This document shows positions 34,710 through 49,627 of a DNA stretch of 64,000 nucleotides, piece after piece (the first letter of the stretch is position 1; each line of letters starts with the position of its first letter). This DNA comes from Syntrophobacterales bacterium (GTDB taxonomy: Bacteria > Desulfobacterota > Syntrophia > Syntrophales > UBA2210): the NCBI GenBank assembly GCA_018433345.1, contig JAHDRK010000013.1, forward strand, positions 7,482 to 71,481. The letters are read 5' to 3'. Both the position numbers and the translations under genes were made by a program. The notes under the pieces are model-generated. The model worked only from the letters and a program-made list of their open reading frames with translations, was not told where the DNA came from and searched no databases.

Positions 34710-37700
34710 ATGAACACTGAACCCGTCAACAATGACCCCTTGATCCTCAGGCATCGCCGTATTCTCGCCCAGGCGGCTGTTTTTGACGGCGATTTCAGCA
34801 TCGATTGGCTCCAGGAGCTTACAGGCGAGAAGGCATCCGTCATATTTTCAGCCCTTGAATACGCAGTCGAAGGGGGGCTGCTTTCCCGGATCGATCTCGC
34901 ACTCTTTTCGTTCATTGACGCTGATGAGAGGAACGCCCTCGTCAGGGAGCTGCCCACCGAGGAAGTCGAACCGCTGCACCGTAAGGCGGCCGCCCTGTTA
35001 TTCTCCAACATGCCGGAAGGTTCGGAGAGAACCACCCGTGTCGCCCGTCACCTGCTTCACCTTTCAAACGACTATGAGGGTTGTCGTATTCTGCTGGAGA
35101 ACGGAAACATCCACCGGCGCCGCTTCAGGGACGATGAGGCAAGAATCTTTTACGAAAAGGCACTCGACGATCTTCGCAGTATAAAAAACCGCAATGCCGA
35201 CCGACTCTTTATTCAATCAACTCTCGAGTACTGCAAGGTATCGACCGACAGCGACAAACAGAACCGCGTGATTGCAATCATAGAAGAGGCCATTGCCCGA
35301 GCCGAATCCGTCGGCGACCGGGATTCTCTGGGTTTCCTTGAAATGCAGCTCGGTAAAAGCGAATGGCTCCGTTCGCGCTACCCGGAAGCACTCCATCATT
35401 TCGAGAAGGGTTGGGACATGACCAAGAGCGCCGACGATGCGATTATCCAGAAATCCGCGACCATCCTGGGCATGTTCTATAATTACTGGTCGGGGCGATA
35501 CCGGGATGTGGTCGAGGTATATGAAAAGCTGGTCCCCAATGTAGAAGATCAGTTCCCCAAGGGACGCCTTCCCCTCCTCGCGGCGTTGACCGCCGGCGTA
35601 TGCCTGGGACATACGGGCCTTTATTCCCAAGCCCTGGGAATGCTGCATGCCATTCGCGGACACAGCCGTTCCATCGGTAACCTTTCAATGGCAGGACTTG
35701 CCGGAGTTTCCCTTGGATACCTCCTCCTGGAACTTCAGCGGCCCGATGACGCCATCCAGTGTATAATGGACTCATGGGAAGAAACGGAAACAAGCAAGAG
35801 CATTTACGCCCGCCTGGGCGGCCTCTGTCTGCTGGGATACGCCTATCTGCTCGTCGGTGATCACGATCGCGCCGTTGAATGTCTCAGGGAATACCTGGAC
35901 GAAAGCAGGCGGTCTCAAATGACTGTCAAGTATACAGCCCTCTGGATGCAGATCTGCCGGGCCATGGAGGAAGGTTCCTTCCCTCCCCTCGAAGGTCTTT
36001 CTCTAGAGGAGGAAATCGCTTATTCACTGAAAAGCGGCAATTTCCTCATGAAAGGCGTCGCCCATCGTTACCGGGCCATGAAAATGAGGCAAGCCCGTGA
36101 ACCCTCCGGCGCCATACTGGCGGAACTGGAAAAGTCCCTCGGCGATCTAGAGACCTGCGGCCACCAGGTTGAATTGGCCAATTCCAAGCTGGAGATCTCC
36201 CGTGAGTACATCCTTATGGGCGATCATGACCGGGCCGCCGAATTTGCAGGACCTGCCGCGCGAACTCTATACTCCTTTAACGAAGCCCTGGTTCCCGACG
36301 ATATAAGGCCCCTGGTGAAAGACTTACGCAAAGACAATGACTTGCTTGACGAAATTCTCAGGCTGAGCCAGGAGTTGGCCACTATCAGAGATTACGGGGA
36401 ACTGTTAAAGCGGATCGTATCGGCCAGCAACAGGATAACGTGTGCTGAGCGGGGTGCGGTTTTCGCTATAGAAGGCGGCCATCCCGAGAAGATCGTCCTC
36501 CGGTCGGCAAAAAATCTCACGGCGGAAGATGTAAAGATGCCCGAATTCGACCGGTCCATGAAACTTATCATGGAAACCGCCGGAAATCCACGTGGAAAAA
36601 TACTTGGAGAAATGGATCATGACAATCTCGGCAACGCCCGAGGGAGGGATATCATACGGTCCTGCATCTGCGTTCCACTGAAAATCAGGAACAAGCTTAA
36701 GGGAGTTCTTTATCACGACAACCGCCTTTTTAGAAGCGCATTCAAGGAATCAGACCTGGAAATTCTCGACTATTTCGCCACCCAGGCAGCCATAGCGATG
36801 GACAATGCCGAGGCCTGGGAAAGATTGCAGAACCTCTATGAAAAACAACAACTGGAAAAGGAGCATTACGAGAAAGAATACCTGGAAACGATCCACTTCG
36901 CAGATTTCGTGGGTAAAAGCCCGACCATCAGACAGGTTTTCGTGGAAGCCGAGCAGGTCGCCCAAACGGATGCCACCGTGCTGATTTTGGGTGAAACCGG
37001 AGTGGGAAAAGAACTGGTGGCTCGCTACATTCACCGCCACAGCTCCCGGGCCGACAAGCCCTTTATCAGGGTTCACTGTGGCGCCTTACCGGAAAGTCTA
37101 ATTTCGAGCGAACTTTTCGGCCATGAGAAGGGTGCCTTTACGGGAGCCACGTCCCGCCGTGTAGGTCGCTTCGAACTTGCAAACGGAGGGACCATTTTCT
37201 TGGACGAAATCGGCGACATATCGATGGAGGTCCAAGTAAGACTGCTGAGGATTCTCCAGCATAAAGAATTTGAGCGCGTGGGAGGCCATGAGACATTGCG
37301 TTCCGATTTCCGCCTTCTTGCCGCAACAAACCGAAACCTGGAAGAAGAAGTGGAAAACGGTCGATTCCGCCGCGACCTTTACTACCGGCTCAACGTCTTC
37401 CCCATCAGGGTTCCACCCCTACGCGAGCGAAAGGAGGATATCCCTTTACTGGCCCGCTACTTTCTCGACATCTATGCCAACAAGAGCAACAAACCCGTCA
37501 GCAAGCTGAAACCCGATGAAATGGGGAAGCTCCTGTCCTATGACTGGCCGGGCAATGTGAGGGAGCTCGAAAATGTCATCGAGCGCGGGGTAATCCTGGC
37601 AAAGGGTTCCATTTACAAGGTGCCTGACCTGAACGGCCCCCACCACCGAAGAAACGATGGATCATCCATGAATCTTCGAGAAAATGAACGGAATCACATT

Positions 37701-37883
37701 CTCAAGATTTTGAAAAAGACCGGTGGTAAAGTGGCCGGACCGGGAGGAGCTGCGGAAATCCTCGAAATCCATCCCAACACCCTCTTTTCGCGGATGAAAA
37801 AACTCGGGATCTCAAGGAAGGCGGATTACGTGTCAGGTCCTTCCCGGTCGACATCCGCAGGATGTCAGGATAACGATATCTAG
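34710..37883 (+). CDS. Sigma-54-dependent transcriptional activator with a long TPR-like N-terminal region and a GAF domain
   Basis: 1057 aa. AAA+ Walker A GETGVGKE, GAFTGA loop, FLDEIG, RRDLYYRLNV. C-terminal Fis-type HTH AAEILEIHPNTLFSRMKKLGI. A GAF-like segment sits at about residues 570-720 and helical repeats at about 1-560. Confidence 0.9.
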   Translation: MNTEPVNNDPLILRHRRILAQAAVFDGDFSIDWLQELTGEKASVIFSALEYAVEGGLLSRIDLALFSFIDADERNALVRELPTEEVEPLHRKAAALLFSNMPEGSERTTRVARHLLHLSNDYEGCRILLENGNIHRRRFRDDEARIFYEKALDDLRSIKNRNADRLFIQSTLEYCKVSTDSDKQNRVIAIIEEAIARAESVGDRDSLGFLEMQLGKSEWLRSRYPEALHHFEKGWDMTKSADDAIIQKSATILGMFYNYWSGRYRDVVEVYEKLVPNVEDQFPKGRLPLLAALTAGVCLGHTGLYSQALGMLHAIRGHSRSIGNLSMAGLAGVSLGYLLLELQRPDDAIQCIMDSWEETETSKSIYARLGGLCLLGYAYLLVGDHDRAVECLREYLDESRRSQMTVKYTALWMQICRAMEEGSFPPLEGLSLEEEIAYSLKSGNFLMKGVAHRYRAMKMRQAREPSGAILAELEKSLGDLETCGHQVELANSKLEISREYILMGDHDRAAEFAGPAARTLYSFNEALVPDDIRPLVKDLRKDNDLLDEILRLSQELATIRDYGELLKRIVSASNRITCAERGAVFAIEGGHPEKIVLRSAKNLTAEDVKMPEFDRSMKLIMETAGNPRGKILGEMDHDNLGNARGRDIIRSCICVPLKIRNKLKGVLYHDNRLFRSAFKESDLEILDYFATQAAIAMDNAEAWERLQNLYEKQQLEKEHYEKEYLETIHFADFVGKSPTIRQVFVEAEQVAQTDATVLILGETGVGKELVARYIHRHSSRADKPFIRVHCGALPESLISSELFGHEKGAFTGATSRRVGRFELANGGTIFLDEIGDISMEVQVRLLRILQHKEFERVGGHETLRSDFRLLAATNRNLEEEVENGRFRRDLYYRLNVFPIRVPPLRERKEDIPLLARYFLDIYANKSNKPVSKLKPDEMGKLLSYDWPGNVRELENVIERGVILAKGSIYKVPDLNGPHHRRNDGSSMNLRENERNHILKILKKTGGKVAGPGGAAEILEIHPNTLFSRMKKLGISRKADYVSGPSRSTSAGCQDNDI

Positions 37884-38094
37884 TTTAATGACGATATATC
37901 GTTGTTTCTTCCTCCTCGTTGCGCATTGTGTGTCCAGTCATTTGTCTCCAGAATCGACTTATCACATTCAATCAATATTCGATGGTCTTGCAAAAATCAG
38001 CACTCCTCTCGTCTGCCTGAGCGGGGTTGAGAGGGAATATCCGAAAAGACCAGGGGCAATAGGCCGTGGGCGACGGATACGGATAAGGGGCTAT

Positions 38095-38109
38095 TGGCAC
38101 GATGATTGC
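38095..38109 (+). promoter_or_regulatory. Sigma-54 (-24/-12) promoter
   Basis: TGGCAC-gatga-TTGC is an exact match to the TGGCAC-N5-TTGC consensus. It lies 208 nt upstream of the SBP gene and directly downstream of the activator gene. Confidence 0.75.
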
Positions 38110-38316
38110 GTAATATGCAATGTGAAAGTTTGAGAAAGAACAGTATCACCGATGAAAACCAATTTTATCCTCACTTCAAAGAAAGCTTACCGGAAGGACC
38201 AGGCATTGATCGTCAAAAGCGTTGCACCGACCATCATCATTACGTCAAACATAGACATACATAAATTTATACGTTTCCCGCCGTAACAATCCAGCCACAC
38301 CAAAAAGGAGGGTGTC

Positions 38317-39579
38317 ATGCAAAAATCACGTCTACTTTTCATCGTCGTCAGCACCGTGCTGGCTGTTATCCTTTTTGCTTCCACGGCACCGGCCAAAAGA
38401 GAAAAAGAAATACGCTTGGGTTTCATGGGTGATCTTTCTGCTCCCTTTTCTCTGAGCGCCGAAGCCGCGGCGAAACTCGCCGTCGAAGAGATTAACGAAG
38501 CCGGCGGCATATTGGGAAGACCCGTTCGTCTCTTCGTAGAAGACACAGGCGGCGAGATTCCAAAGGGGATCGAAGTCTACAAAAAACTTGTTATGCACAA
38601 TCGGGTAAATGCGGTCATCGTGGCCGAAAAGGTTGAAATGGGGGTGGCCGGAATACAAATCGGGGCAGAGTTGTTCCGAGAGTTTCCCCACGTCATGTTT
38701 TCCACCATAGGTTCGGGTGATGCCATCTGGCACCATGTGCGAGATGATTATGACCGCTTCAAGTTCGGGTTCCAGACCTACTATTTCGTTTCGTCCCACT
38801 ACCTTGAAATTTTAGGCGGGAAACTTCTTCCAGACTTTTATGGCAACGTCGTAGGCGCAAAAAAGATCGCCATTCTTTACGAAGATATGGACTGGACCCG
38901 TCCCATCCGGCGCGGCCTCCCCGGCGTATCGCCTCCCCTCAAGGAAGTTTATGAAAACGCTGGATTTGAAGTCGTCTACGAGGCCACTCTTTCTCTCGAC
39001 CAGCAGGTGTTCAGTTCGATCTTCGAGCGGATAGCCCAGTCCGAAACAGATATCATCGACTGCGTAGTGGGTTACATAGACCAGGTTTCCTTCATCAAAC
39101 AATGGGTAGACTCGCCGGCAAGGAATATTCCATGGTTCTTCTGGGGAGGTATCGCAGGAATGCCCATGGCCTGGGATATGACGGGAGGGGCCATCGCGGG
39201 TGGTAGCATCGGTTCTTCCTTCGTGAGAGTGCCCATTACCGAAAAAACGATCCCTTTCATGGATAACATGATCGGAAAATACAAAGTGGGGCCCATCTTC
39301 GGTTCCCACACCACATATGACACAATATTCGGTTACCGGAAGGCCCTTGAACAGGCCGGTGACCTCAAGGATATCAACAGGATTATCAAAGAACTCGAAA
39401 ACGTAAGAGAAACAGCCGTCCTGGGAACCATCGGTTGGGATCCCAAGTATCACTATAATATACCGTATCCCGAGTACATAACGCCCATAGTGCAGTGGCA
39501 GGACGGTCAAATGGTGCCCGTCTATCCCGAGGACATCGCCCTTGGAAGCTTTAAACCGGTCACCGAGCTAAGAAAGTAA
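38317..39579 (+). CDS. ABC transporter substrate-binding protein (LivK/type I periplasmic binding fold)
   Basis: Signal peptide MQKSRLLFIVVSTVLAVILFASTAPA, EIRLGFMGDLS..., 420 aa. SD AAGGAGG. Confidence 0.85.
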   Translation: MQKSRLLFIVVSTVLAVILFASTAPAKREKEIRLGFMGDLSAPFSLSAEAAAKLAVEEINEAGGILGRPVRLFVEDTGGEIPKGIEVYKKLVMHNRVNAVIVAEKVEMGVAGIQIGAELFREFPHVMFSTIGSGDAIWHHVRDDYDRFKFGFQTYYFVSSHYLEILGGKLLPDFYGNVVGAKKIAILYEDMDWTRPIRRGLPGVSPPLKEVYENAGFEVVYEATLSLDQQVFSSIFERIAQSETDIIDCVVGYIDQVSFIKQWVDSPARNIPWFFWGGIAGMPMAWDMTGGAIAGGSIGSSFVRVPITEKTIPFMDNMIGKYKVGPIFGSHTTYDTIFGYRKALEQAGDLKDINRIIKELENVRETAVLGTIGWDPKYHYNIPYPEYITPIVQWQDGQMVPVYPEDIALGSFKPVTELRK

Positions 39580-39664
39580 GCCCCTTACTCGGCCGACGCG
39601 GGCAAGGTACTGTTTCACCAGCCCGCGGCGGCGGTCGAGGGACCCTGTGGGCAACATAACAGAA

Positions 39665-39683
39665 GGCGGCGCGGAGCGCCGCC
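39665..39683 (+). other. Intercistronic GC hairpin between the SBP and permease genes
   Basis: GGCGGCGC-gga-GCGCCGCC, a possible attenuator or mRNA-stability element. Confidence 0.4.
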
Positions 39684-39699
39684 AGCGAGAAACAACGCC

Positions 39700-40575
39700 A
39701 TGATCACCCTTATTCAAAACATCCTTGTCTACACGCTTATCTGGGGATCGATCTACCTTCTAATATCCATCGGCTTTTCCCTGATATGCGGTGTACTGCG
39801 CATCTTCCACCTGGGCTACGGAATCACCTTCGTGATCGCCGCATATGCCATGTGGTTCTTTTTGACAGACATGAACATGGGACTCGTTACCAGTATCATA
39901 CTCATGATTCTGCTGCAGATATTTATCGCCATAGTGGTTTTCTACAAAGGAGTATTTCAGCAATTCCTCGATGAAGAAGAAAACCTCCTGGTTGTATCGA
40001 TCCTGCTGTTTCTTTTCGCCAGCAATTTCATCAACTGGATGTATCCTATTACGGCAGGGGTAAGCATCCCCACGCGTTTTTTCCCGGGATCGGTCATGAT
40101 AGGAGCCGTAACCATTTCCAAACAGATGATCGCGGCGGCTGTTACAGGAATTATTGTAACCTTCCTGCTTGTACTAATGTTTCTCAAAACACGCACGGGG
40201 CTCATAATCCGGGCCATGAGCCAGGACCTCAACGCCGCGCGACTAATGGGCGCGAACGTCGACAACATGTATTACCTGGCCATGATCCTGTCGGTCATAC
40301 CCCCCGCTATTTGTGTAATAATGATCGCTCCTTTCTGGAGCATAGACCCCCATATGGGGATGCCGCTCCTCATCACGGCGCTACTTATAGCCATTCTGGG
40401 GGGACTGGGGAACCTGAAAGGAAACATCATAGCAGCCTACCTGATTGCCCTTATCCATTTTTCGACTAATTTTCTGCTGGCGCCTCGATTTATGACTTTC
40501 GCCGCACTCGTAGCGACACTCATCTTCCTCATAGCCAAACGGGGAGGAATTATGGCAGGGGAAACGATATGGTAA
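39700..40575 (+). CDS. Branched-chain-amino-acid-type ABC permease (LivH family)
   Basis: 291-aa polytopic protein of LivH-like length and pattern (..RAMSQDLNAARLMGANV..). Confidence 0.88.
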   Translation: MITLIQNILVYTLIWGSIYLLISIGFSLICGVLRIFHLGYGITFVIAAYAMWFFLTDMNMGLVTSIILMILLQIFIAIVVFYKGVFQQFLDEEENLLVVSILLFLFASNFINWMYPITAGVSIPTRFFPGSVMIGAVTISKQMIAAAVTGIIVTFLLVLMFLKTRTGLIIRAMSQDLNAARLMGANVDNMYYLAMILSVIPPAICVIMIAPFWSIDPHMGMPLLITALLIAILGGLGNLKGNIIAAYLIALIHFSTNFLLAPRFMTFAALVATLIFLIAKRGGIMAGETIW

Positions 40576-41612
40576 AAGTGGAACTAAAAAGAGACCGAAT
40601 CCTTCTACGGTGGGGGCAGAAAAAATACGAATGGTGCATAGAACCCCGCTACTGGAGAAACCCGATCATAGGTGTGTCCATATTGTTGGTTCTTCCGCTG
40701 TTCTTTTATTCCTTTCCCCATCTTCTTACGATGCTGACCACGGCCAATCTGCTGGCGGCCATCTCCATTCCCTTGACATTGCAAATCCTTGGAACCGCCC
40801 GCGTCAACTTCGGACCACAGTTTTACCTGGGGATAGGCGGCTACACGGCTGCGCTCCTCAATCTTCACCTGGGATGGAATCCCTTGTTTACGCTCATCGG
40901 AACAATCGTGGTCTGCGGTTCCGTGTCATTCCTTCTAAGTCCGATTACCTGGGTTGCCAAGGGGCTTTATTTTTCTCTGATCACACTTATACTTCCCCTG
41001 GCCTTTCTGGATCTGACCTACCAGTTCGGCGACATATTCAGGGGCGAGGTGGGGCTCTTCGGAATGAGCTCCCTTCTTGACCTTGGTCGGGTGCGATGGA
41101 ACTACCTATCACATTACTACCTCTCCCTGTTTCTGATGCTGGTTTACCTCTTCTCGGCGGACAAAATCGGCCGTTCCAGGTTCGGCGTCACTCTGGCAGC
41201 CATTAATGAAAACGAGGACGTGGCCAGAATGATGGGAGTCAACGTAAATCGTTACAAGGTATTCTATTACGTGCTGCCGTCGATTCTCACCGGAATCGTG
41301 GGTTGGTTCATTGTCCATACATTCAGGTCTTTTGCGGGTGTAACCTATCTCCCTCTGGAATACATGCTTAAGGTGTTGTTTATCGTCATAATCGGAGGCC
41401 GGGCCTTTGTTTATGGTGCGGTTCCCGGCGCCTACGTTGTCGCTATGCTGGAAGAAGGGTTGAGAACGTTCGGCCACATCAGCCATTGGCTGTTCCCACT
41501 GGTTCTTATAGCGCTTATCTACATTCTTCCCCGTGGAGAGGGTCTATGGGGTCTTTACCACAAACGGCACCCAAGGGATTACTTCCCCAAGTTACATGTG
41601 CGCCGGGAATGA
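40569..41612 (+). CDS. Branched-chain-amino-acid-type ABC permease (LivM family)
   Basis: 347-aa polytopic protein with INENEDVARMMGVNV. The ATG overlaps the preceding stop. Confidence 0.88.
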   Translation: MVKVELKRDRILLRWGQKKYEWCIEPRYWRNPIIGVSILLVLPLFFYSFPHLLTMLTTANLLAAISIPLTLQILGTARVNFGPQFYLGIGGYTAALLNLHLGWNPLFTLIGTIVVCGSVSFLLSPITWVAKGLYFSLITLILPLAFLDLTYQFGDIFRGEVGLFGMSSLLDLGRVRWNYLSHYYLSLFLMLVYLFSADKIGRSRFGVTLAAINENEDVARMMGVNVNRYKVFYYVLPSILTGIVGWFIVHTFRSFAGVTYLPLEYMLKVLFIVIIGGRAFVYGAVPGAYVVAMLEEGLRTFGHISHWLFPLVLIALIYILPRGEGLWGLYHKRHPRDYFPKLHVRRE

Positions 41613-41670
41613 CCCGTTTCAAGCAATGGGGAAATACAAGAGAGATGACCGACAAAGGAGATTATTCCTC

Positions 41671-42396
41671 GTGTTAGAAGTCGATAATATAAGCATAAAT
41701 TTCGGCGGCCTTAGGGCGCTGGACGATGTAAGCTTTTCCGTCGATGAAGCAGAAGTGGTGGGTCTTATAGGTCCGAACGGCGCCGGGAAAACAACCATGA
41801 TGAATATCATCTGCGGCATTTACAAACCCACTGACGGCAGAATTTTTTTTGAAGGAGAAGATATAACGGGAATGCCTCCTCACAAGATATGTCATCGGGG
41901 AATATCCAGAACCTATCAGATCCCGCAGCCCTTCTACGCCATGACTGCCCTTGCGAACGTTGTAACAAGCGTCCTCAACGGCAAGAAACGACCAAACATG
42001 TGCCTGTCCGACGCGGGCTTGGAGGCTTCTTATTACCTTGAATTCGTGGGACTTTTTTCCAAACGGGACGAACTGGCAAGTAATTTGAATCTCTACGAGT
42101 TACGAATGCTCGAACTGGCACGGGCCCTTGCCACCACACCGAAACTCCTTCTCCTGGACGAGGCGATGGCGGGATTAAATCCGGTGGAATCGGAAAAGGC
42201 ACTGGAAATGATTTGGAGTGCCCAGGAGCAGTTCGGCATTACCCTCCTATGGATCGAGCATGTGATGAAAATCATTATGAAGGCGGCCAAGAGGATTGTG
42301 GTCCTACAATACGGCAAGAAAATAGCCGAAGGACCCCCCGAGCAAATCGCCAATGATCCACGCATTATTGAGGCCTATTTAGGGGGTGCGCACTGA
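41671..42396 (+). CDS. ABC transporter ATP-binding protein (LivG family)
   Basis: GPNGAGKTT and YELRMLELARAL. Start set at GTG 41671 (VLEVDNISINFGG, SD AAAGGAG). The track start 41533 overlaps the permease, and ATG 41625 is an alternative. Confidence 0.85.
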   Translation: MLEVDNISINFGGLRALDDVSFSVDEAEVVGLIGPNGAGKTTMMNIICGIYKPTDGRIFFEGEDITGMPPHKICHRGISRTYQIPQPFYAMTALANVVTSVLNGKKRPNMCLSDAGLEASYYLEFVGLFSKRDELASNLNLYELRMLELARALATTPKLLLLDEAMAGLNPVESEKALEMIWSAQEQFGITLLWIEHVMKIIMKAAKRIVVLQYGKKIAEGPPEQIANDPRIIEAYLGGAH

Positions 42397-42397
42397 A

Positions 42398-43102
42398 ATG
42401 CTTACCATCAAAAACCTGAACGTCTCTTACGGTGTCATTCCCGTCCTGCACAACGTAAACATGACAGTGGAAAAGGGTGAGTTGGTGGCCCTGCTCGGTT
42501 CAAACGGTGCAGGAAAAACTACGCTGTTGAACACAGTCTCCGGTATCCTCCAGGGGGCATCGGGAACGATCGAGTTTTTGGGAAAGCGAATTGAAAAGTC
42601 AGCCCCTCAGAATATTGTTCGCATGGGCATATCGCAGATCCCCGAAGGAAGAAAGATTTTTCCCTACATGACGGTCAAGGAAAACCTTTTCATGGGAGCA
42701 AGTACACGACAGGCATGGGGAAGTCGCCACGAAATGTTCGAACGGGTCACAAAATTATTTCCCATTCTTGAAGAGCGGAAAAACCAGCGGGCGAGTCTCA
42801 TGAGTGGCGGAGAGCAACAGATGCTCGTCATTGCCAGGGGACTTATGGCAAAACCGCTTCTCCTCATGATCGACGAACCATCTCTGGGATTGAGTCCTCT
42901 CTTTCAAAAGCAGATTTACCGGGCAATCGAAACCCTTCCAGAACAAGGAATAACCATCCTCTTGGCCGAACAGAATGCCCAGATATCGTTGGAAATAAGC
43001 AATAGAGGCTACGTCCTACAGGACGGCGAAATTGTCATGGGAGGAACAAGCGAAGAGTTATTAGCCAGTGATATGATAAGACAAGCATACTTGGGGGTTT
43101 AA
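42398..43102 (+). CDS. ABC transporter ATP-binding protein (LivF family)
   Basis: MLTIKNLNVSYG, GSNGAGKTT, MSGGEQQML, LLMIDEPS. Confidence 0.88.
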   Translation: MLTIKNLNVSYGVIPVLHNVNMTVEKGELVALLGSNGAGKTTLLNTVSGILQGASGTIEFLGKRIEKSAPQNIVRMGISQIPEGRKIFPYMTVKENLFMGASTRQAWGSRHEMFERVTKLFPILEERKNQRASLMSGGEQQMLVIARGLMAKPLLLMIDEPSLGLSPLFQKQIYRAIETLPEQGITILLAEQNAQISLEISNRGYVLQDGEIVMGGTSEELLASDMIRQAYLGV

Positions 43103-43108
43103 TAATAG

Positions 43109-44470
43109 ATGAACAGCGACTATTTTTCTTATACGGCATCTCTTTTCGACCGCTCGCGGGTTGAAGAGAAATCGGAGGCACTCAAAGGAATTCGGGTGCT
43201 CGACCTTTCGCACATGATTTTCGGTCCAAAGGCTGCCGATGTACTAGCCGAACACGGTGCCGAAGTGGTCAAGGTGGAAGTTCCATACCAGGGAGACTAC
43301 TGGCGGAGCGCAACCTATTGGGGTAAATACTGGAAGCACTCCAATCCCATGTGGCATTTCATCAATCACAGCAAATACTTTGTTGGCATCGATGTCAAGT
43401 ATCCAAAGGGCAAGGAGCTGATACTGAAACTGGCCGAGCAGTCCGACATCGTGATTGAAAACTTCGCCAGCGGAACGGTTGAAGCCTGGGGAATCGGCTA
43501 TACCCAGACCCGCGCCATCAATCCAAAGATCATTTATGCCAGCCTCAGCACTTATGGACAGACCGGTCCTTTCCGTTTTTTCCCGGGCTGGGATCTACTG
43601 GCCCAGGGCACCAGTGGCGTCATAAGTATCACCGGCTACCCCGACACCGAGTATTTTTTTAAGGTGCCGGACTTCTTCGGTGATTTCTATCCCGGCTTTT
43701 TTGCAGCAATGCTTATAATGATGGCGCTTAATCATCGGGAAAAAACCGGTGAAGGCCAGTATCTTGATGTCTGCCAGGCGGAAATCCTCATGCGCTCCCT
43801 CTTTCATTTCACTTACAGCAGCGTCACGGGACAAGAGCTGGGCAGAACGGGGAACCATGACCCTACAACCTCTCCATCAGGTATTTTCAAGACTTCCGAC
43901 GGCGGCTTCGTCGCGCTTTCCGTCGGAACGGATGAACAGTTCAAGGCCATCTGTGTCGAAATGAGCCGGGAAGACCTCGCCGATGATGGACGGTATGCCA
44001 AGGCCCTGAATAGACTTGATCCGACGCATGCCGATGAACTCAACGACATAGTCGCCCAATGGGTTGCCACAATGACACTCGAATCGGCACGGCGTCTTCG
44101 GGAAAATTGCCGTTTCCCCTTCAGCGTCGTGGAAGACGACGTCACCATATCCAAGGACGAATGGCGGCGGGAACGAGGAAGTGTCGTAGAATTCGACGAT
44201 ACAATGTACGGAAAGCTCGTCATGGCAGGTTCCGCAGCCATGATGAGCGAGACACCGGGACGCATCAAGTGGCTGACACGTCCCCTTGGGTACCACAATC
44301 GGTATATCTTCAAAACAAGGCTCGGATTGTCGGAGGAAGAAATTCGAGAGCTCGAAAAAGAGCGTGTGGTGGGCTACTGGGACTACCGCGTGGGCCAGAG
44401 ACCACCGGTTTATTACAAGATCGAGGAAGACAAAATTTTCAATTACGGTGATAAAGGCGATGTCCAGTAA
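43109..44470 (+). CDS. Family III CoA-transferase (CaiB/BaiF/Frc family), subunit 1
   Basis: LKGIRVLDLSHMIFGPKAADVLAEHGAEVVKVE and the catalytic-Asp region GWDLLAQGTSG; 453 aa. Confidence 0.88.
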   Translation: MNSDYFSYTASLFDRSRVEEKSEALKGIRVLDLSHMIFGPKAADVLAEHGAEVVKVEVPYQGDYWRSATYWGKYWKHSNPMWHFINHSKYFVGIDVKYPKGKELILKLAEQSDIVIENFASGTVEAWGIGYTQTRAINPKIIYASLSTYGQTGPFRFFPGWDLLAQGTSGVISITGYPDTEYFFKVPDFFGDFYPGFFAAMLIMMALNHREKTGEGQYLDVCQAEILMRSLFHFTYSSVTGQELGRTGNHDPTTSPSGIFKTSDGGFVALSVGTDEQFKAICVEMSREDLADDGRYAKALNRLDPTHADELNDIVAQWVATMTLESARRLRENCRFPFSVVEDDVTISKDEWRRERGSVVEFDDTMYGKLVMAGSAAMMSETPGRIKWLTRPLGYHNRYIFKTRLGLSEEEIRELEKERVVGYWDYRVGQRPPVYYKIEEDKIFNYGDKGDVQ

Positions 44471-45794
44471 GGAAAAAATCTATTCCAGGTACATGCAGAA
44501 CAGAAATGCGGCCAAGAGAATCTCCGAATGGAGTTCCGTCCTTTCCGAGATAATGTCTCCGGAGGGAAAACCAGAGGCTCTTAGCGACACAATGGTGCTT
44601 GACCTCAGTTATGCCAATTTCACGGGCATGATAGCTTCCAGTATTCTCGCCGAGGCGGGGGCGGAGGTCATCAAGGTGGAACCCCCCGAGGGCGATCCGG
44701 CGCGGCTCATGACCCCCTATGGAAAAACGATAGAAGGAACAGGGATCCCCTACATCATGGAATGTCGCAACAAGTACAATATCACCCTCGATATCTACAA
44801 GTACGATGACAGGGAAAAACTTTGCGCCCTGGTCAAAAAGGCGGACATTTTAATAGAAACCTTCGAACCCGGAATGATGGACGGACTCGGAATAGGATAT
44901 CGGCAACTCAAGGAGATCAATCCAGGCCTGATCTACGTCGCTATAACACCTTACGGTCAATATACGAAGGACGCGGAGAAACGTTCTTCATTGCCTTGGT
45001 CCGACCTTACCAGCCAGGCTGAATCGGGAATGGCGGCGCTGATCGGAGCCCTGCCCGATGACCCGGAACCTTTCAACTGGCCCACCCGAGCAGGGTTTCA
45101 CGCGGCAACATACACCAGCGCCGTATCGGCAGTGTGCAGCACCCTTATCGCGCTCTTTTTCAAACGGCGAAACGGGACGGGACAGATGATCGACGTAGCC
45201 ACGGCTGATTCCTATTCTTCCTGCGTAGGGTTCCCGCCGACCATAGGTTACATATGGAAAAAACCAAGACCGCGTTACGGAACCCTGGATTACGGACTGT
45301 GTCCCTATGGTTTTTTCAAGTGCAAGGACGGCTATGTCGCCATAGCCTGCTTCCGTGACCAGGATTTTCGCGCGGCGCTCCGCATTCTTGGTCTCTGGAA
45401 AATCGAAGAAGAGTGGAAAACGCTTCTCGACAGAATCACCGATGACATTGAAAGGGCGAAAACTCTAAACCGCGAAATCGAAAAGGTCGTGGCTTCGATG
45501 ACCTTCGATGAAATATTTCAAAAATTTCAGGAATTCAGTATAAAGGCAGCACGTTCTAAGTGGCGCGGCGGGGGTCTTCCTGTTACCACCAAGATGCTTC
45601 ATCCCATGGAGGTCATGGAGGTGGAGCACTGGAAGGCCCGAAACGCCTTTTTTAAGGCGGACGACAAGTATTACGGGATATTCCAGGTACCTGTCACCGG
45701 CAAGATGTCCAAGACGCCCTTGCGCATCAAAAGGATCGCCGCCCGCATAGGTGAAGACACAACATACATTTTTGAAAAATACGGTATATCGTGA
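44460..45794 (+). CDS. Family III CoA-transferase, subunit 2
   Basis: MVLDLSYANFTGMIASSILAEAGAEVIKVEPPEGDP and WSDLTSQAESG. ATG 44460 overlaps the upstream stop by 11 nt. The track start 44286 is internal to the previous gene. Confidence 0.85.
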   Translation: MSSKEKIYSRYMQNRNAAKRISEWSSVLSEIMSPEGKPEALSDTMVLDLSYANFTGMIASSILAEAGAEVIKVEPPEGDPARLMTPYGKTIEGTGIPYIMECRNKYNITLDIYKYDDREKLCALVKKADILIETFEPGMMDGLGIGYRQLKEINPGLIYVAITPYGQYTKDAEKRSSLPWSDLTSQAESGMAALIGALPDDPEPFNWPTRAGFHAATYTSAVSAVCSTLIALFFKRRNGTGQMIDVATADSYSSCVGFPPTIGYIWKKPRPRYGTLDYGLCPYGFFKCKDGYVAIACFRDQDFRAALRILGLWKIEEEWKTLLDRITDDIERAKTLNREIEKVVASMTFDEIFQKFQEFSIKAARSKWRGGGLPVTTKMLHPMEVMEVEHWKARNAFFKADDKYYGIFQVPVTGKMSKTPLRIKRIAARIGEDTTYIFEKYGIS

Positions 45795-45922
45795 TATCGG
45801 CGGTAAGCTCAAAAAAATAGCCGAGGTGATAACATAATAGTGACACAAAGAAAGCCGCCTTCTTGGAATGTCCGGAATAACGGGTATCGAAGACGGACGG
45901 AGAGTGAGAAACGGGTGGAGCC

Positions 45923-47521
45923 ATGAAGGAAAAAAAGAAAGACGTGGACCTCGACGAAATCAGGCCCGACCTGGCGGAGACCATCGAGCGCCACCGCCTG
46001 ACCCTCGACGAAGCCCGTCCGGAGGCCGTAAAGAAAAGGCACGAACGAAACCAGCGTACCATACGGGAAAATATCGCCGACCTGCTCGATCCGACTGGCT
46101 CAATAGAGTACGGATCCCTCGCCCTGGCCGCCCAGCGACAGCGGATCCCAATGGATGAGTTGATGAAGAAGACCCCCGCCGATGGTCTTATCGCCGAAGT
46201 GGGATCGGTGAACGGAGACCTCTTCGGGCAACAAAAAAGCCGTTGCATGGTGCTGGGGTATGATTACACCGTCCTCGCCGGAACCCAGGGCTGGTTCAAT
46301 CACAAGAAAAAAGACAGGATGCTGAAACTCGCCTATAAATGGAGGATCCCCGTGGTCCTCTTCGCCGAAGGTGGGGGCGGCCGTCCGGGTGACGTGGACA
46401 TGACCGATATCGTCGTCGCCGGGCTGGATTTCATGTCCTTTACGCTGTTTGCCCGGCTAAGCGGCCTTGTGCCGTTGGTCGGTGTGGTAAGCGGCCGCTG
46501 CTTCGCCGGCAACGCGGCCCTCCTGGGATGCTGTGACGTTATAATAGCAACCAAAGATTCGAATATAGGCATGGCCGGCCCCGCTATGATCGAAGGCGGG
46601 GGGCTGGGGGTGTTCGCACCCGAGGACGTGGGCCCCATTTCCATTCAGTCTCCCAACGGCGTCGTGGATATAGTCGCTGAAGACGACGCCGATGCCGTTG
46701 CCAAGGCAAAATGGTATCTTTCTTACTTCCAGGGGGATATGCCGACCTGGGATTGCGCCGATCAACGTCATTTGCGCCACGTCGTCCCGGCAAACCGGAG
46801 GCGGGCGTATAACGTCCGAAGGGCCATAGAGATCCTGGCGGACAGTAAGTCGGTACTGGAACTGCGACCCGAATTCGGAATTGGAATCGTCACGGCCCTT
46901 GTGAGGATAGAAGGAAAGCCCTTCGGGTTGATGGCCAACAACACATTCCACTTGGCCGGGGCGATCGATTCCGACGGCGCCGACAAGGCATCCCGGTTTG
47001 TTCAACTCTGCGACGCCTTTGACCTGCCGGTAATCGTTCTCATCGACACGCCGGGCTTCATGGTGGGACCCGAAGCGGAAAAGACGGCGCAGGTCCGCCA
47101 TTTCGGCCGTATCTTTCTGAATGCCGCCAATGCCGATATCCCGGTTTTCAGTGTCGTGCTAAGGAGGGGGTACGGACTCGGTGCCATGGCAGTAGCCGGG
47201 GGCAGTTTTCACAACTCCGATTTTATCGTTTCATGGCCCACCGGTGAATTCGGGGGCATGGGGCTGGAGGGCGCCGTCCGCCTCGGTTTTAAAAAGGAAC
47301 TAGAGGCAATCGATGATCCCGAGGAAAGGGAAAAGCGCTTCGAGGAACTTGTGGGCCTTTACTACGAACGGGGCAAAGCTGTCAACATGGCCTCGTGCTT
47401 GGAAATAGACAACGTGATCGACCCCGCGGACACCCGTCGCTGGATCATGCAAGGTCTTCGCTCACAACCGGAACGCCGACTGCGAACCACGAAAAAGCGA
47501 CCCAACATAGACGGGTGGTAA
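45923..47521 (+). CDS. Acyl-CoA carboxyltransferase (biotin-dependent enzyme CT/beta subunit), lineage 1
   Basis: 532 aa. RTIRENIADLLDPTGSIEYG, FAEGGGGRPGD, and a second crotonase-like half ending ..IDNVIDPADTR. Confidence 0.85.
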   Translation: MKEKKKDVDLDEIRPDLAETIERHRLTLDEARPEAVKKRHERNQRTIRENIADLLDPTGSIEYGSLALAAQRQRIPMDELMKKTPADGLIAEVGSVNGDLFGQQKSRCMVLGYDYTVLAGTQGWFNHKKKDRMLKLAYKWRIPVVLFAEGGGGRPGDVDMTDIVVAGLDFMSFTLFARLSGLVPLVGVVSGRCFAGNAALLGCCDVIIATKDSNIGMAGPAMIEGGGLGVFAPEDVGPISIQSPNGVVDIVAEDDADAVAKAKWYLSYFQGDMPTWDCADQRHLRHVVPANRRRAYNVRRAIEILADSKSVLELRPEFGIGIVTALVRIEGKPFGLMANNTFHLAGAIDSDGADKASRFVQLCDAFDLPVIVLIDTPGFMVGPEAEKTAQVRHFGRIFLNAANADIPVFSVVLRRGYGLGAMAVAGGSFHNSDFIVSWPTGEFGGMGLEGAVRLGFKKELEAIDDPEEREKRFEELVGLYYERGKAVNMASCLEIDNVIDPADTRRWIMQGLRSQPERRLRTTKKRPNIDGW

Positions 47522-47650
47522 AGCAATCTTGGAGGAACCACGATCTCTCGAACAAACCAACGAGAAAAACCCGGGAATGGAACCGGGCATTCGCTGCGGG
47601 GCCTTTGTGATCTCCTCGTGCCCTGTTGAAGAAATCCCTTTGATGGCGGT

Positions 47651-47872
47651 ATGTTCATGGCAATCGACATAAAGGCCCCCATGCCCGGCATCATAATGGA
47701 AATCCTCGTAGACGAAGGCTACACAGTCAGACGTGACGACGAGCTCCTGATCCTGGAAGCGATGAAGATGGAAAATCCAATCCGCTCACCGGAAGACGGC
47801 GTCGTGAAAACCATCCTCGTGAGAAAAAAGGACTTCGTCGATACCGACCAGATCATCATGTCCCTGGAGTAG
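47651..47872 (+). CDS. Stand-alone biotin carboxyl carrier domain protein
   Basis: 73 aa with biotinyl-lysine motif LEAMKMENPI. There is no N-terminal extension. Confidence 0.85.
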   Translation: MFMAIDIKAPMPGIIMEILVDEGYTVRRDDELLILEAMKMENPIRSPEDGVVKTILVRKKDFVDTDQIIMSLE

Positions 47873-48004
47873 ATCCCTTCGATCGGGATTTATGTTTTTC
47901 CTGGGGACGAAAACACCCGGGATACGAAGGATAAAACGCCTCGTAATCGCCTTCTGTTTACCCTTCAATGAATATAAAGTCTTGAGGAAGGAGAAACAAA
48001 AACC

Positions 48005-49561
48005 ATGGCCTTTGAAAAACAGTTGGAAGAACTCAGGCAGAAAAAAGAGCGGGCGCTCATGATGGGAGGACCCGAAAAAATCAAAAAGCAGCACGACGCG
48101 GGCAAATACACGGCCCGCGAACGCATCGACAAGCTGCTCGATGGGGGAAGCTTCGATGAAATCGGGATGCTGAGCCATTCCGACATGCCGGGAATGGCTC
48201 ACAAGAGCCCTGCCGACGGCAAGGTGGGCGGCTACGGCCTTATAAACGGGCGTCCGGTAGGAGTCCTTGCCGCCGATTTCACAGTCCTTGGGGCCACATC
48301 GAGCCGCGTGGCGGGACGAAAGGAACATGACATCAGGAGCACGGCGGACCGCCACGGGTTTCCCGTCATATACCTGGGCGAGGCCGGAGGTGCCCGAATG
48401 CCGGATATAATGGGCTCGGCGGGGCTGGCCTCCTACGGTGGCGGCGGAAGGGACACCTTCCTGCAACTGATGAGCCGTGTCCGAAGAACTCCACTGGTAA
48501 CGGCGATCTTAGGCCTCTGCTACGGGGAACCGACATGGATGGCTTGCCTTGCCGATTTCGTGGTCATGGTCAAGGGTACGGCCATGGGTGTTTCGGGTCC
48601 TCGGATACTGTCAATCGCCTTGGGCGAAGAGATAACCGACGAGGAGCTCGGAGGCTGGGAGCTGCACGCAAAGGTGACGGGAATGACCGATCGGACGGCG
48701 GAAAACGAGGATGAGTGTTTCAAGATTATACGGGATTACCTGGATTACATGCCTTCGCACAATGAGGAAGTTCCTCCCGCAAAGGAGGTTCCGGAAGGAT
48801 CGGGTGAAAACATGTCAAAAATCCTCGACATCATCCCGGAAAAGCGAAACAGGGCCTACGACATGAACCGGGTGATCGAGTGCATTGTAGACCGGGAGAG
48901 TCTTTTCCCCATCAAGCCGCTGTTCGGCCAAACGGCCATCACTTCTCTGGCACGAGTGGACGGAAAGGTCGTGGGCATCGTGGCGAACCAGCCTCGCGTC
49001 AACTCGGGGGCCATGGATACCGATGGAATCGAAAAGGTCATCAGCTTTCTTTGTCTCTGCGACTCCTTCAACATTCCATTGATCTTTCTTGAAGACATTC
49101 CGGGATTTCTCGTGGGATGCGCCGCCGAGAGAAAACGGGTGGGCGCCCACGTCATGAATTTCATGAATGCCTTGGGGCTTGTGACTGTCCCAAAGATCAC
49201 TATCATTATGAGAAAGGCCTATGGAATGGCCTTCTGGAACATGTGCGGTTCCGGAAGCGGGGCCGATTCGATCGTCGCGTGGCCCACCGCCGAAATGAGT
49301 TTCGTCGATCCCGTCATCGCCGCCAACGTGGTCTACGGCGCCACTGCGGCGGCTACACCGGAGGAAAAGGAAGAACGGATAGCCAAGATGGCCGAGGGTA
49401 CCGACCCTTACGGAGCCGCTGGCCTACACTATATTCAAGATGTCATCGATCCGCGGGAAACGAGGAACCACATTATCAAGGTGCTGCGGCGGACTCGGGA
49501 TTTTTCAAAAACGAAGGGAATAGGCGAACACAAACTGGCCAACTGGCCTACGAAATTCTAA
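48005..49561 (+). CDS. Acyl-CoA carboxyltransferase (12S/PccB/MmdA-like), lineage 2
   Basis: 518 aa. GGPEKIKKQHDAGKYTARERIDKLLDGGSFDEIG, LGEAGGARMPD, ..IQDVIDPRETR. SD GAAGGAG. Confidence 0.88.
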   Translation: MAFEKQLEELRQKKERALMMGGPEKIKKQHDAGKYTARERIDKLLDGGSFDEIGMLSHSDMPGMAHKSPADGKVGGYGLINGRPVGVLAADFTVLGATSSRVAGRKEHDIRSTADRHGFPVIYLGEAGGARMPDIMGSAGLASYGGGGRDTFLQLMSRVRRTPLVTAILGLCYGEPTWMACLADFVVMVKGTAMGVSGPRILSIALGEEITDEELGGWELHAKVTGMTDRTAENEDECFKIIRDYLDYMPSHNEEVPPAKEVPEGSGENMSKILDIIPEKRNRAYDMNRVIECIVDRESLFPIKPLFGQTAITSLARVDGKVVGIVANQPRVNSGAMDTDGIEKVISFLCLCDSFNIPLIFLEDIPGFLVGCAAERKRVGAHVMNFMNALGLVTVPKITIIMRKAYGMAFWNMCGSGSGADSIVAWPTAEMSFVDPVIAANVVYGATAAATPEEKEERIAKMAEGTDPYGAAGLHYIQDVIDPRETRNHIIKVLRRTRDFSKTKGIGEHKLANWPTKF

Positions 49562-49582
49562 ATTCACCATCCTCGATGGTTT

Positions 49583-49617
49583 CCGCCGCTTCCCCCTCCA
49601 TAAACGGGAAGCGGCGG
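49583..49617. terminator. 12-bp GC hairpin between convergent genes (no U-tract)
   Basis: CCGCCGCTTCCC-N11-GGGAAGCGGCGG. Confidence 0.45.
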
Positions 49618-49627
49618 ACCTCGACTT

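Follow-up and report, generated by a model that had tools for sequence, protein, structure and literature searches.

The locus examined here, in the genome of an uncultured, syntroph-type anaerobe (a Syntrophobacterales bacterium), raises the question of what an ABC importer, a CoA-transferase gene pair and two carboxyltransferase (CT) genes flanking a biotin carboxyl carrier protein (BCCP) gene accomplish together. In the window (the whole stretch of 64,000 nucleotides that was analysed), open reading frame (ORF) calls and family profile searches define 11 genes in this cluster, all on the forward strand (34710-49561; Table 1). Family matches bear out the genes, order and shared direction given in a first-pass annotation of this DNA, but not its count of twelve; the sole extra ORF in the span matches no family. 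A dedicated sigma-54 activator gene adjoins a co-directional string of ten genes 3′ of a -24/-12 promoter, and this string most likely serves organic-acid import, ATP-free attachment of CoA and then movement of a carboxyl group via biotin. The cluster is real; its component types are familiar and their combination is uncharacterised.

Table 1 Features of the cluster, in window coordinates (~, start set by comparison with relatives).
Feature	Position	Strand	Properties
Sigma-54 enhancer-binding activator	34710-37883	+	1057 aa; PF00158 Sigma54_activat 240.8 bits
Candidate enhancer (UAS)	37872-37904		Palindrome gACGATATATCGTt at 37890-37903
Familyless ORF	37888-38133		81 aa; overlies enhancer/promoter region
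Predicted -24/-12 promoter, TGGCACgatgaTTGCg	38095-38110	+	Perfect TGGCAC-N5-TTGC, downstream of ACGATATATCGT palindrome
Periplasmic substrate-binding protein (SBP)	38317-39579	+	420 aa, Sec signal peptide; Peripla_BP_6 94.7 bits
GC-rich hairpin, GGCGGCGCGGAGCGCCGCC	39665-39683	+	SBP-livH spacer; no U tract
HAAT-family permeases, LivH-like and LivM-like	39700-40575, 40569-41612	+	BPD_transp_2 90.2, 109 bits
ABC ATPases, LivG-like and LivF-like	~41626-42396, ~42398-43102	+	BCA_ABC_TP_C
Family III CoA-transferase subunit 1 (CoAT1)	43109-44470	+	453 aa; CoA_transf_3 315.7 bits
Family III CoA-transferase subunit 2 (CoAT2)	44460-45794	+	444 aa; CoA_transf_3 262.2 bits
CT1, LCC-type Carboxyl_trans	45923-47521	+	532 aa; 4RCN 667 bits, 5FIF 629 bits
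BCCP	47651-47872	+	73 aa, EAMKME; Biotin_lipoyl 68.5 bits
CT2, PCC-beta/12S/MmdA-type Carboxyl_trans	48005-49561	+	518 aa; 1VRG 356 bits, 1ON3 312 bits
13-bp GC-rich hairpin (fold)	49582-49618		Between convergent stops of CT2 and next gene

The minimal or overlapping gaps described in the first pass are found from livH to CoAT2, where the two permease genes overlap by 7 nt and the two CoA-transferase genes by 11 nt, but not throughout: four gaps measure 120 nt (SBP-livH), 128 nt (CoAT2-CT1), 129 nt (CT1-BCCP) and 132 nt (BCCP-CT2), and a 433-nt spacer separates the activator and SBP genes. Internal promoters or terminators had been named as a test of the unity of the string; the four larger gaps hold no promoter-like site and only one weak terminator-like hairpin (47869-47893), total counts equalling those of shuffled sequence. 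The hairpin in the SBP-livH spacer may stabilise the mRNA or act as a partial attenuator. The sole strong hairpin of the operon lies 3′ of CT2, whose stop faces that of a gene assigned by family match to the CDP-alcohol phosphatidyltransferases (49628), and is the probable transcript end.

The activator is composed of a TPR-like N-terminal region of ~540 residues, in which TPR families were matched, a GAF domain (residues 561-699; 35.8 bits), an AAA+ domain (residues 734-899), a lid and an HTH_8 domain (20.1 bits). The GAFTGA loop and the Walker A motif GETGVGKE are both readable in its translation, placing the AAA+ sigma-54 interaction domain in the protein. Its best NCBIfam matches, NifA, FhlA and NorR, all score under their cut-offs. 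With enhancer-binding proteins of that type it shares the GAF, AAA+ and Fis-type HTH domains and, as predicted from sequence, the use of a palindromic enhancer site ahead of a -24/-12 promoter; it differs from them in its extra N-terminal region. Orthologues of the activator, 61-69% identical, adjoin orthologous or related clusters.

With at most one mismatch allowed, the 2.13 Mb genome contains a single copy of the palindrome; a degenerate copy, AACGATATCTAGTT (37872-37885), straddles the 3′ end of the activator gene. Taken by itself, the -24/-12 pattern is no more than chance would give in 64 kb (at least one match in 73 of 100 shuffles); what makes the element credible is where it lies and that relatives conserve it. 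Palindrome and promoter recur as a pair at five other loci, preceding orthologous operons in genomes G001, G020 and G013 and ligase genes in G011:C9 and L006, at a spacing of 86-106 nt versus 204 nt here; in L006, a member of the Desulfobacteraceae, the operon encodes a ligase and a single-chain carboxylase. In the leader of ~195 nt after the promoter, neither an Rfam match nor conservation among relatives was found. The recurrence of the predicted pair supports the dedicated sigma-54 control proposed earlier, and its place before orthologous operons favours control of a single operon over a wider regulon. The word regulon should therefore give way to one operon and its activator, since the palindrome occurs only once in the genome.

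The string opens with a full importer set of the HAAT/Liv type (TC 3.A.1.4), comprising a Peripla_BP_6 SBP, two BPD_transp_2 permeases and LivG-like and LivF-like ATPases (215 and 246 bits against the respective models). Judged by its sequence, the SBP is of the cluster-B/Liv type; its orthologues are 60-75% identical, and its best match among solved structures reaches only E = 1e-8. The first-pass identification of a Liv-type importer is supported; the SBP is distant from true LivJ, scoring 22.6 bits where the model requires 477, and falls outside LivJ/LivK. The transporter components bear Pfam names that would fit ordinary branched-chain amino-acid (LIV) uptake beside unrelated acyl-CoA enzymes, yet that explanation is very improbable given this SBP score, permeases far under the LivH and LivM cut-offs, and the translational coupling of transporter to CoA-transferase genes in every orthologue.

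CoAT1 and CoAT2, always paired in relatives, each carry a D-x-x-(A/S)-Q-x-x-G motif (CoAT1, GWDLLAQGTSG; CoAT2, WSDLTSQAESG, invariant among orthologues), whose Asp we take to be the active-site residue from the motif position in Frc/CaiB. The invariant columns among CoAT2 orthologues are W180, D182, S185, Q186 and G190. When compared with succinyl-CoA:(R)-benzylsuccinate CoA-transferase, BbsEF (9FN0), CoAT1 is closer to chain B (133 bits) than to chain A (72 bits), and CoAT2 closer to chain A (89 bits) than to chain B (68 bits). The two systems have in common a pair of adjacent, divergent family III genes and the activation, here predicted, of an acid via CoA transfer in an anaerobe. They differ in that the similarity amounts to only 89-133 bits, the Asp motif is kept here in both subunits, each subunit is ~40 residues longer, and the CoA-transferase shares its operon with an ABC importer and not with Bbs-type beta-oxidation genes. 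Activation by CoA transfer instead of a ligase, as first suggested, is supported, probably through a two-subunit family III enzyme.

The remaining three genes form a biotin module lacking biotin carboxylase (BC), in agreement with the first reading. CT1 matches the CT domain of long-chain carboxylase (LCC) far better than the beta subunit of propionyl-CoA carboxylase (PCC-beta; only 230 bits), and its homologues at 62-68% identity are the C-terminal domains of 1100-aa BC-BCCP-CT chains, such fused forms being found in L006, L007, L008, L012 and L056; of 101 relatives, 18 have it as a stand-alone protein. CT1 was rejected as a single-chain LCC (~1100 aa), because it is a CT only, without fused BC and BCCP domains. 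Substrates of the LCC family are acyl-CoAs of C2-C16 (PMC6491548). In CT2, a clade-specific motif, YGMAFWNM, replaces the YGGAYD of PCC-beta, and orthologues with 78-83% identity are part of several acid-activation clusters. CT1 and CT2 belong to different subfamilies and are only ~28% identical; the best NCBIfam match of both is mmdA (CT2, 402 bits; CT1, 251 bits; cut-off 999). The BCCP has no linker or anchor region and is minimal, as are all BCCPs of the lineage, which are free domains of 71-73 residues.

Comparison with relatives distinguishes this module from the preceding genes. Six relatives retain the seven-gene core of importer and CoA-transferase, at 61-89% identity, and the CT content of the orthologous operons varies: same-genus relatives hold CT1 only, a sister genus CT2 only and another relative (G084) neither. 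Paralogous cassettes without any CT are present in G000:C30, G011:C57 and several metagenome contigs. On this sequence comparison, the CT genes are variable, interchangeable add-ons to a conserved core. The same variation would suit CT genes that are separately expressed neighbours at a permissive operon end, the core alone being the functional unit for import and thioesterification, as would their higher GC3 (0.67-0.74 versus 0.55-0.61 in the core) and the 128-132 nt gaps that flank every gene of the module. Such independence is quite improbable, as at least five independent arrangements (the window, G001/G005, G020/G013, L140 and G011:C9) place a CT1- or CT2-type gene after a pair of CoA-transferase genes, and the gaps hold no promoter-like site or convincing terminator, the only strong hairpin coming after CT2. 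Orthologous operons with CT1 only, CT2 only or no CT leave unproven the first-pass view that the module serves one activation and decarboxylation step alone. Carboxyl transfer may run in either direction, the same activator type controlling an ATP-dependent CT1-family carboxylase in L006, and we concur that the substrate cannot be read from sequence.

No ATP-grasp BC and no membrane beta subunit OadB (OAD_beta) is encoded in the window, and the genome has a single copy of each. The BC gene, on contig C52, shares 4 nt with a PycB-like gene whose 659-aa product has its own BCCP domain; a 5S keto-acid CT (HMGL-like/PYC_OADA) is absent from the operon, and the PycB-like protein is the one coupled to BC. 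The OadB gene, on contig C60, adjoins genes for a GcdA-like CT and a 71-aa BCCP that is 66% identical to that of the operon, and C60 also encodes methylmalonyl-CoA mutase-like and epimerase-like proteins (judged solely by ORF size and N-terminal sequence). Family searches of the annotated genes gave no delta/gamma anchor subunit; an ORF within the 128-132 nt gaps would have at most ~42 aa. The energy-coupling partner is encoded outside the operon.

The explanation that we tentatively favour, from gene content and comparison, is sodium-pump-coupled decarboxylation of the imported, CoA-activated acid. The activator would sense the substrate or a derivative through its TPR-GAF region and switch the string on, and the Liv-type system would import a carboxylic acid other than a branched-chain amino acid. 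The overlapping family III genes would form a BbsEF-like heteromeric CoA-transferase, taking CoA from an acyl-CoA donor to make the thioester at no cost in ATP. CT1 and/or CT2, as alternative or cooperating alpha subunits sharing a freely diffusing carrier, would move the carboxyl group of a carboxy-acyl-CoA (malonyl- or glutaconyl-type) to the 73-aa BCCP; the single OadB/GcdB of the genome would discharge the carboxybiotin, conserving energy by sodium export. The decarboxylated acyl-CoA might then be the CoA donor for the next round or enter beta-oxidation encoded elsewhere.

Consistent with pump-coupled decarboxylation are the domain content of all 11 genes, the conservation of the core and the promoter-palindrome pair, the lack of BC in an operon whose genome couples its only BC to a PycB-like, BCCP-bearing partner, and the one genomic OadB. 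Relatives of CT2 adjoin OadB genes: in G017:C2 an 82%-identical orthologue directly adjoins genes for OadB and an acyl-CoA ligase, after which come remnants of an activator of this type, and in G020 a distance of 0.65 kb separates a 57%-identical paralogue from the OadB gene downstream of it. In G001, of the same genus, a BCCP gene and two tandem CT genes are located 3′ of an OadB gene, which means that a pump-type decarboxylase can include a carrier and two CTs. G000, the genome with the present operon, has BCCP-CT2 in it and no G001-type OadB cluster, and G001, G004 and G005 show the converse. Against the pump stand the location of OadB outside the operon, the failure to find an anchor subunit, the ATP-dependent carboxylases nearest to CT1 and the cost of an ATP-driven importer as the front end of a low-yield decarboxylation. 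Genome G013, estimated to be 100% complete, has an orthologous operon with CT2, yet no OadB or CT1 anywhere; the pump is thus no universal partner, unless the assembly missed OadB. The activator and palindrome of L006, found with a ligase and a carboxylase, suggest that the pathway may need carboxylation instead.

Known Na+-translocating biotin decarboxylases (GcdABCD for glutaconyl-CoA, MmdABCDE for methylmalonyl-CoA and OadABG for oxaloacetate) likewise join a BC-less CT to a small BCCP, and the operon has the CT alpha subunit and a carrier with the MKM lysine but no OAD_beta in cis. It also differs from them in its apparent lack of an anchor subunit, in having two unrelated CTs, not one, and a bare carrier domain, and in mmdA scores well below the cut-off. 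Cycles of CoA-transferase and decarboxylase operate on oxalate (Frc/Oxc), on malonate via malonyl-CoA in Sporomusa malonica and in the conversion of succinate to propionate in Propionigenium. Their common logic is that the acid is thioesterified by the CoA ester of its decarboxylation product and then decarboxylated, so that transport, transferase and decarboxylase suffice, in keeping with an operon that has no dehydrogenase, hydratase or thiolase gene. Transport in those cycles is by antiporters or secondary carriers instead of an ATP-driven system; the oxalate enzyme is TPP-dependent, and none is known to have two CTs.

Carboxylation could alternatively proceed in trans, with the BC of C52 charging the free BCCP at the expense of ATP and CT1 and/or CT2 carboxylating an acyl-CoA, after the model of dissociated E. 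coli-type or mycobacterial shared-alpha carboxylases. Membership of CT1 in the LCC carboxylase family, the 65%-identical activator and same palindrome before a ligase and a fused BC-BCCP-CT1-type chain in L006, free BCCPs that could serve several partners, and G013 without OadB all agree with it. It is nonetheless unlikely: the overlap of the only BC gene with its PycB-like neighbour suggests a dedicated pair, and a CoA-transferase in place of a ligase argues for ATP economy.

A further possibility, judged somewhat less likely than pump-coupled decarboxylation, is that CT1-BCCP-CT2 moves a carboxyl group from one acyl-CoA to another without ATP; a transcarboxylase of this type would be a biotin enzyme of a new kind. 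CT2 would load the free BCCP with a carboxyl group stripped from a common donor, for example methylmalonyl-CoA or malonyl-CoA, and CT1 would carboxylate the CoA-transferase product, or the reverse. Two CTs of different subfamilies flanking the carrier, in an operon that encodes neither BC nor OadB, would fit, as would the company of CT2 relatives with decarboxylase pumps and the CT1 relatives that are carboxylase domains, the L006 arrangement, the mutase-like and epimerase-like genes on C60, and G013. CT1- and CT2-type genes again lie within 10 kb in G011:C9, with an activator and a CoA-transferase pair, and CT2-clade genes of ~80% identity stand beside variable second CTs in L130, L131, L238 and L140, as expected of a common and a substrate-specific half. 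Weighing against it, orthologous operons hold just one of the two CTs, G013 having no CT1 at all, and the tandem CTs and BCCP after OadB in G001 indicate that a CT pair need not imply transcarboxylation. We know of no characterised enzyme of this kind, and a full-text literature search found none. The closest comparison is the Propionibacterium methylmalonyl-CoA:pyruvate transcarboxylase (12S/5S/1.3S), to whose 12S subunit (1ON3) CT2 is related and which shares with this proposal ATP-free carboxyl shuttling between two CT sites via a small biotin protein. The second CT here is an LCC-type acyl-CoA CT, not an HMGL-like 5S, and the carrier lacks the N-terminal anchor that holds 1.3S in the classical complex. 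If transcarboxylation is nevertheless the true function, the operon would be the ATP-free counterpart of the Desulfobacteraceae pathway of ligase and single-chain LCC, with the CoA-transferase standing in for the ligase and CT2 for biotin carboxylase, and both ATP-consuming steps would be replaced.

The gene string consists of eleven co-directional + strand genes spanning positions 34710–49561, as defined by ORF listing and family scans, one fewer than the twelve counted in the first-pass annotation. A possible twelfth gene, the ORF at 37888–38133, was rejected, as it matches no family and lies across the promoter and enhancer. The minimal or overlapping gaps originally described hold from livH to CoAT2, the second of the two family III CoA-transferase genes, but not for four spacers of 120–132 nt; the spacer between the activator and the binding protein (SBP) gene is 433 nt long. 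A simple scan found no promoter-like sites in the spacers, where the sole terminator-like site is a weak hairpin directly 3′ of the carrier gene, and overall counts of promoter-like and terminator-like sites equal those of shuffled sequence. Internal promoters or terminators splitting the transporter from the enzyme genes, named earlier as evidence against a common unit, thus do not rise above the shuffle expectation. The transcript probably ends at a 13-bp GC-rich hairpin, which lies where the stop of CT2 faces that of a convergent CDP-alcohol phosphatidyltransferase gene.

Features of the operon and its control region in the window.
Feature	Coordinates	Strand	Characteristics
Sigma-54 activator	34710–37883	+	1057 aa; TPR-like N-terminus, GAF, AAA+ with GAFTGA, HTH_8
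-24/-12 element	38095–38110		TGGCACgatgaTTGCg
Binding protein (SBP)		+	Peripla_BP_6, signal peptide
Permeases, two		+	BPD_transp_2
ATPases, two		+	LivG-like, LivF-like
Family III CoA-transferase genes, two (CoAT1, CoAT2)		+	11-nt mutual overlap
Carboxyltransferase CT1	45923–47521	+	532 aa
Biotinyl carrier protein (BCCP)	47651–47872	+	73 aa, EAMKME
Carboxyltransferase CT2	48005–49561	+	518 aa
GC-rich hairpin	49582–49618		likely transcript end

The window comes from a MAG, 93% complete, that belongs to a family within the Syntrophales. CoAT2 was used as the query against 100 relatives, and the window proteins were mapped onto the retrieved loci. The seven-gene core SBP–livHMGF–CoAT1–CoAT2 is kept at 61–89% identity, and the genes that follow it vary. 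In two genomes of the same genus, G001 and G005, only CT1 follows, and the operon end is bordered by the same convergent lipid gene as in the window; the activator lies upstream of the core in G001, and the G005 contig stops within livF. Only CT2 follows the core in G020 and G013, of the sister genus g9, with the G020 activator located downstream, whereas the core is followed by no CT in a further relative (G084) and by CT2 plus a second PCC-like CT in a metagenome contig (L140). In G001 and G005, whose assemblies include the end of the operon, CT1 is not followed by BCCP–CT2, and a true CT2 orthologue is absent from G001, G004 and G005. The CT1-only operons of these closest relatives indicate that the 2-kb BCCP–CT2 block of the window is an indel relative to them. 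GC3 of CT1, BCCP and CT2 in the window is 0.67–0.74, compared with 0.55–0.61 for the transporter and CoA-transferase genes, and GC3 of the CT genes exceeds that of the core in each of the three genomes compared (the window; CT1 in G001; CT2 in G020). The comparison provides a new demonstration that the CT genes are exchangeable add-ons to the core; that they are unlinked hitch-hikers seems improbable. Among the genomes examined, the window genome alone joins an LCC-type (single-chain long-chain acyl-CoA carboxylase) CT, a free carrier and a PCC-type CT behind the core, a combination described here for the first time.

Paralogous cores at approximately 50% identity, on contig C30 of the same genome, on contig C57 of genome G011 and on several metagenome contigs, carry no CT. 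The C30 copy (L110, 3617–9678) is a livHMGF–CoAT1–CoAT2 cassette of 42–54% identity with no adjacent SBP, preceded by a LuxR-type response-regulator gene.

The -24/-12 pattern by itself is no rarer in 64 kb than expected by chance. In the window, the palindrome ACGATATATCGT, of which a degenerate second copy is present, lies 204 nt upstream of the element, and the identical palindrome lies 89 nt upstream of a -24/-12 element in the orthologous operons of G001, G020 and G013. The spacing is 86 nt in contig C9 of G011, before an acyl-CoA ligase gene adjoining a 61%-identical activator, and 106 nt in L006, a Desulfobacteraceae MAG locus, before a ligase and single-chain LCC operon whose adjoining activator is 65% identical. 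The enhancer–promoter distance of 204 nt in the window, versus 86–89 nt in four relatives, implies that roughly 115 nt of additional DNA separate enhancer from promoter here (37904–38095). This conserved palindrome and -24/-12 pair is a new, testable candidate operator for the unusual TPR-GAF sigma-54 activator. A scan of the genome's own 2.13 Mb at ≤1 mismatch returned the window site only, and three sites with two mismatches have no -24/-12 element nearby; the single copy argues for an operon with a dedicated activator, and the wider regulon initially proposed was rejected. The leaders are long, and leader RNA was discarded as a clue to the ligand because Rfam gave no match to a riboswitch or leader RNA and the sequence is not conserved across four orthologous operons.

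Two predictions are well supported by domain content, by the conserved gene pairing and by translational coupling: uptake through the ABC system, and formation of the CoA thioester without ATP by a heteromer resembling BbsEF. The CoA-transferase subunits match the two chains of the benzylsuccinate CoA-transferase structure (9FN0) reciprocally, in line with such a heteromer. The acid itself, as the first-pass annotation held, cannot be read from the sequence, the SBP being remote from every solved or named relative. Its structure was dropped as a route to the substrate (best solved homologue E = 1e-8, with mostly the N-terminal lobe covered); within cluster-B SBPs, a similar fold does not reveal the ligand. 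No consistent catabolic partner occurs near the core across 20 metagenome loci. The ligases of parallel clusters, of the uncharacterised PRK06178 and fatty-acyl-CoA-ligase-like families, hint at an aliphatic acid, and the LCC affinity of CT1 offers hints only of an aliphatic acyl group that is bulky or of medium to long chain length.

CT1 scores 667 bits (4RCN) and 629 bits (5FIF) against the LCC CT domain, compared with 230 bits against PCC-beta. Its 62–68% homologues (in Pseudomonas, Bradyrhizobium, Desulfatibacillum and others) form the C-terminal third of 1100-aa chains of biotin carboxylase (BC), BCCP and CT, and stand-alone CT1-like copies occur in 18 of 101 relatives. Enzymes of the LCC family take C2–C16 acyl-CoAs as substrates, and their role in the cell is unsettled (PMC6491548). 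In genus g9, a stand-alone CT1 homologue is divergent to neighbouring genes (L005, 3860–11587; L232, 5845–9765; L233, 1398–6550) that, judged from their N-termini only, resemble ADP-forming acyl-CoA synthetases of 699 or 480 aa; in some loci it also adjoins a 404-aa membrane protein. An Sfp-type 4′-phosphopantetheinyl transferase gene (11850–12716) after the activator–ligase–LCC string of L006 might mean that the carboxylated acyl-CoA serves biosynthesis at that locus, not catabolism.

CT2 is of the PCC-beta/12S/MmdA type (1VRG, 356 bits; 1ON3, 312 bits), with hundreds of 66–70% homologues in Desulfobacterota and a clade motif, YGMAFWNM, replacing the PCC-beta YGGAYD. CT2-clade genes of 78–83% identity recur at the ends of differing acid-activation clusters: adjoining a ligase and OadB, the membrane sodium-pump decarboxylase subunit, with activator remnants, in contig C2 of G017; beside the activator and a ligase in C9 of G011, with a CoA-transferase pair and CT1-like gene 10 kb away; and beside NMO-family reductases, often with additional CTs, in L130, L131, L235, L237 and L238. 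The G017 activator homologue (L132, 6069–8789) is broken up among five or more ORFs, through either gene decay or indel errors in a two-contig, probably long-read assembly. The NMO-family (nitronate monooxygenase/FabK-like) gene is next to the CT in L130 (7565–10576), L235 (9001–11772) and L238 (10001–12512), and one unannotated gene intervenes in L237 (706–4270). This proximity, repeated in Syntrophales and Desulfobacterales, may mark an enoyl-reducing step linked to carboxyl transfer; an NMO gene also lies 3′ of a paralogous CoA-transferase pair (L111) and, in L105, some 4 kb upstream of the operon of G020.

As encoded, the biotin step is ATP-independent, and two main mechanisms compete for it, with either direction of carboxyl transfer conceivable. 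Tentatively ranked first is sodium-pump-coupled decarboxylation, in which the carboxyl group would leave via biotin, because in related genomes OadB genes are physically linked to relatives of CT2, among them a tandem CT pair accompanied by a carrier, and because the genome's OadB is accompanied by a closely related carrier. The tandem pair belongs to a G001 cluster ordered OadB–BCCP–CT–CT–OYE–activator, its second CT 56% identical to CT2, and a cluster of this type is absent from the window genome. Its gene content marks this locus (L217, contig C11, 44000–56525) as a decarboxylase cluster of the pump type, with two CTs in tandem; it encodes an OadB cut by the contig end, a 71-aa BCCP, CTs of 520 and 514 aa, a 648-aa OYE/BaiCD-like Fe–S flavoenzyme and a 477-aa sigma-54 activator. 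An acyl-CoA to acyl-CoA transcarboxylase, ranked second and rather unlikely, would suit the CT1–BCCP–CT2 arrangement, the recurrence of a conserved CT2 alongside variable second CTs, a second locus (C9 of G011) in which genes of the CT1 and CT2 types accompany the activator, and the control by the same type of activator of a ligase and ATP-dependent CT1-family carboxylase in L006. In G013, a genome rated 100% complete, the operon includes CT2, and both CT1 and OadB are missing from the genome; the lack of OadB points the same way. Such an enzyme is without precedent, however, no description of it having been found in the literature, and some operons have a single CT. The OadB and LCC linkages that would frame these two competing mechanisms are new.

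The genome encodes four carboxyltransferases, two in the operon and one each on C66 and C60. Its only OadB lies on C60 (L135, 85–12636), with the 596-aa GcdA-like CT and, on the opposite strand, a 71-aa BCCP 66% identical to the operon carrier. A 463-aa neighbour may encode a further sigma-54 activator. Other neighbours are 613-aa acyl-CoA dehydrogenase-like, thiolase-like, 720-aa mutase-like, ArgK-like and epimerase-like genes; all these assignments were judged from sizes and N-termini only, and the cluster is probably the organism's glutaconyl-/methylmalonyl-CoA hub. The single BC gene (C52, 46758–50257 with its partner) overlaps by 4 nt a 659-aa PycB-like gene bearing its own BCCP domain; that this BC charges the free operon carrier in trans is improbable, about as likely as hitch-hiking CT genes, though both still count as serious alternatives. 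The C66 CT (L136, 8009–9550) sits in a fatty-acid-synthesis-like cluster, among FabF/ACP/FabZ-like genes. No AccA/AccD-type CT occurs in the 93%-complete genome, and with a single BC, malonyl-CoA supply may rely on that shared BC or on carboxyl transfer.

All parts come from known families, and the operon belongs to no characterised system. By their defining tests, the SBP is not a LivJ and the operon is not a single-chain LCC; it differs from the classical transcarboxylase in having no 5S subunit and from Na+-decarboxylases in having no beta subunit in cis. No paper combining Syntrophales, CoA-transferase and carboxyltransferase was found in the literature. The window is the best single construct with which to ask whether energy-limited syntrophs run ATP-free acyl-CoA/acyl-CoA carboxyl transfer; it also addresses the sharing of one sodium pump among several carboxyltransferases, and bears on a question of long standing, namely which class of substrates LCC-type carboxyltransferases use physiologically. 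The core, of which related genomes and metagenome contigs also hold paralogues, has no characterised member, and its ligand, once identified, would give an annotation to a gene block that recurs across Syntrophales and other anaerobes.
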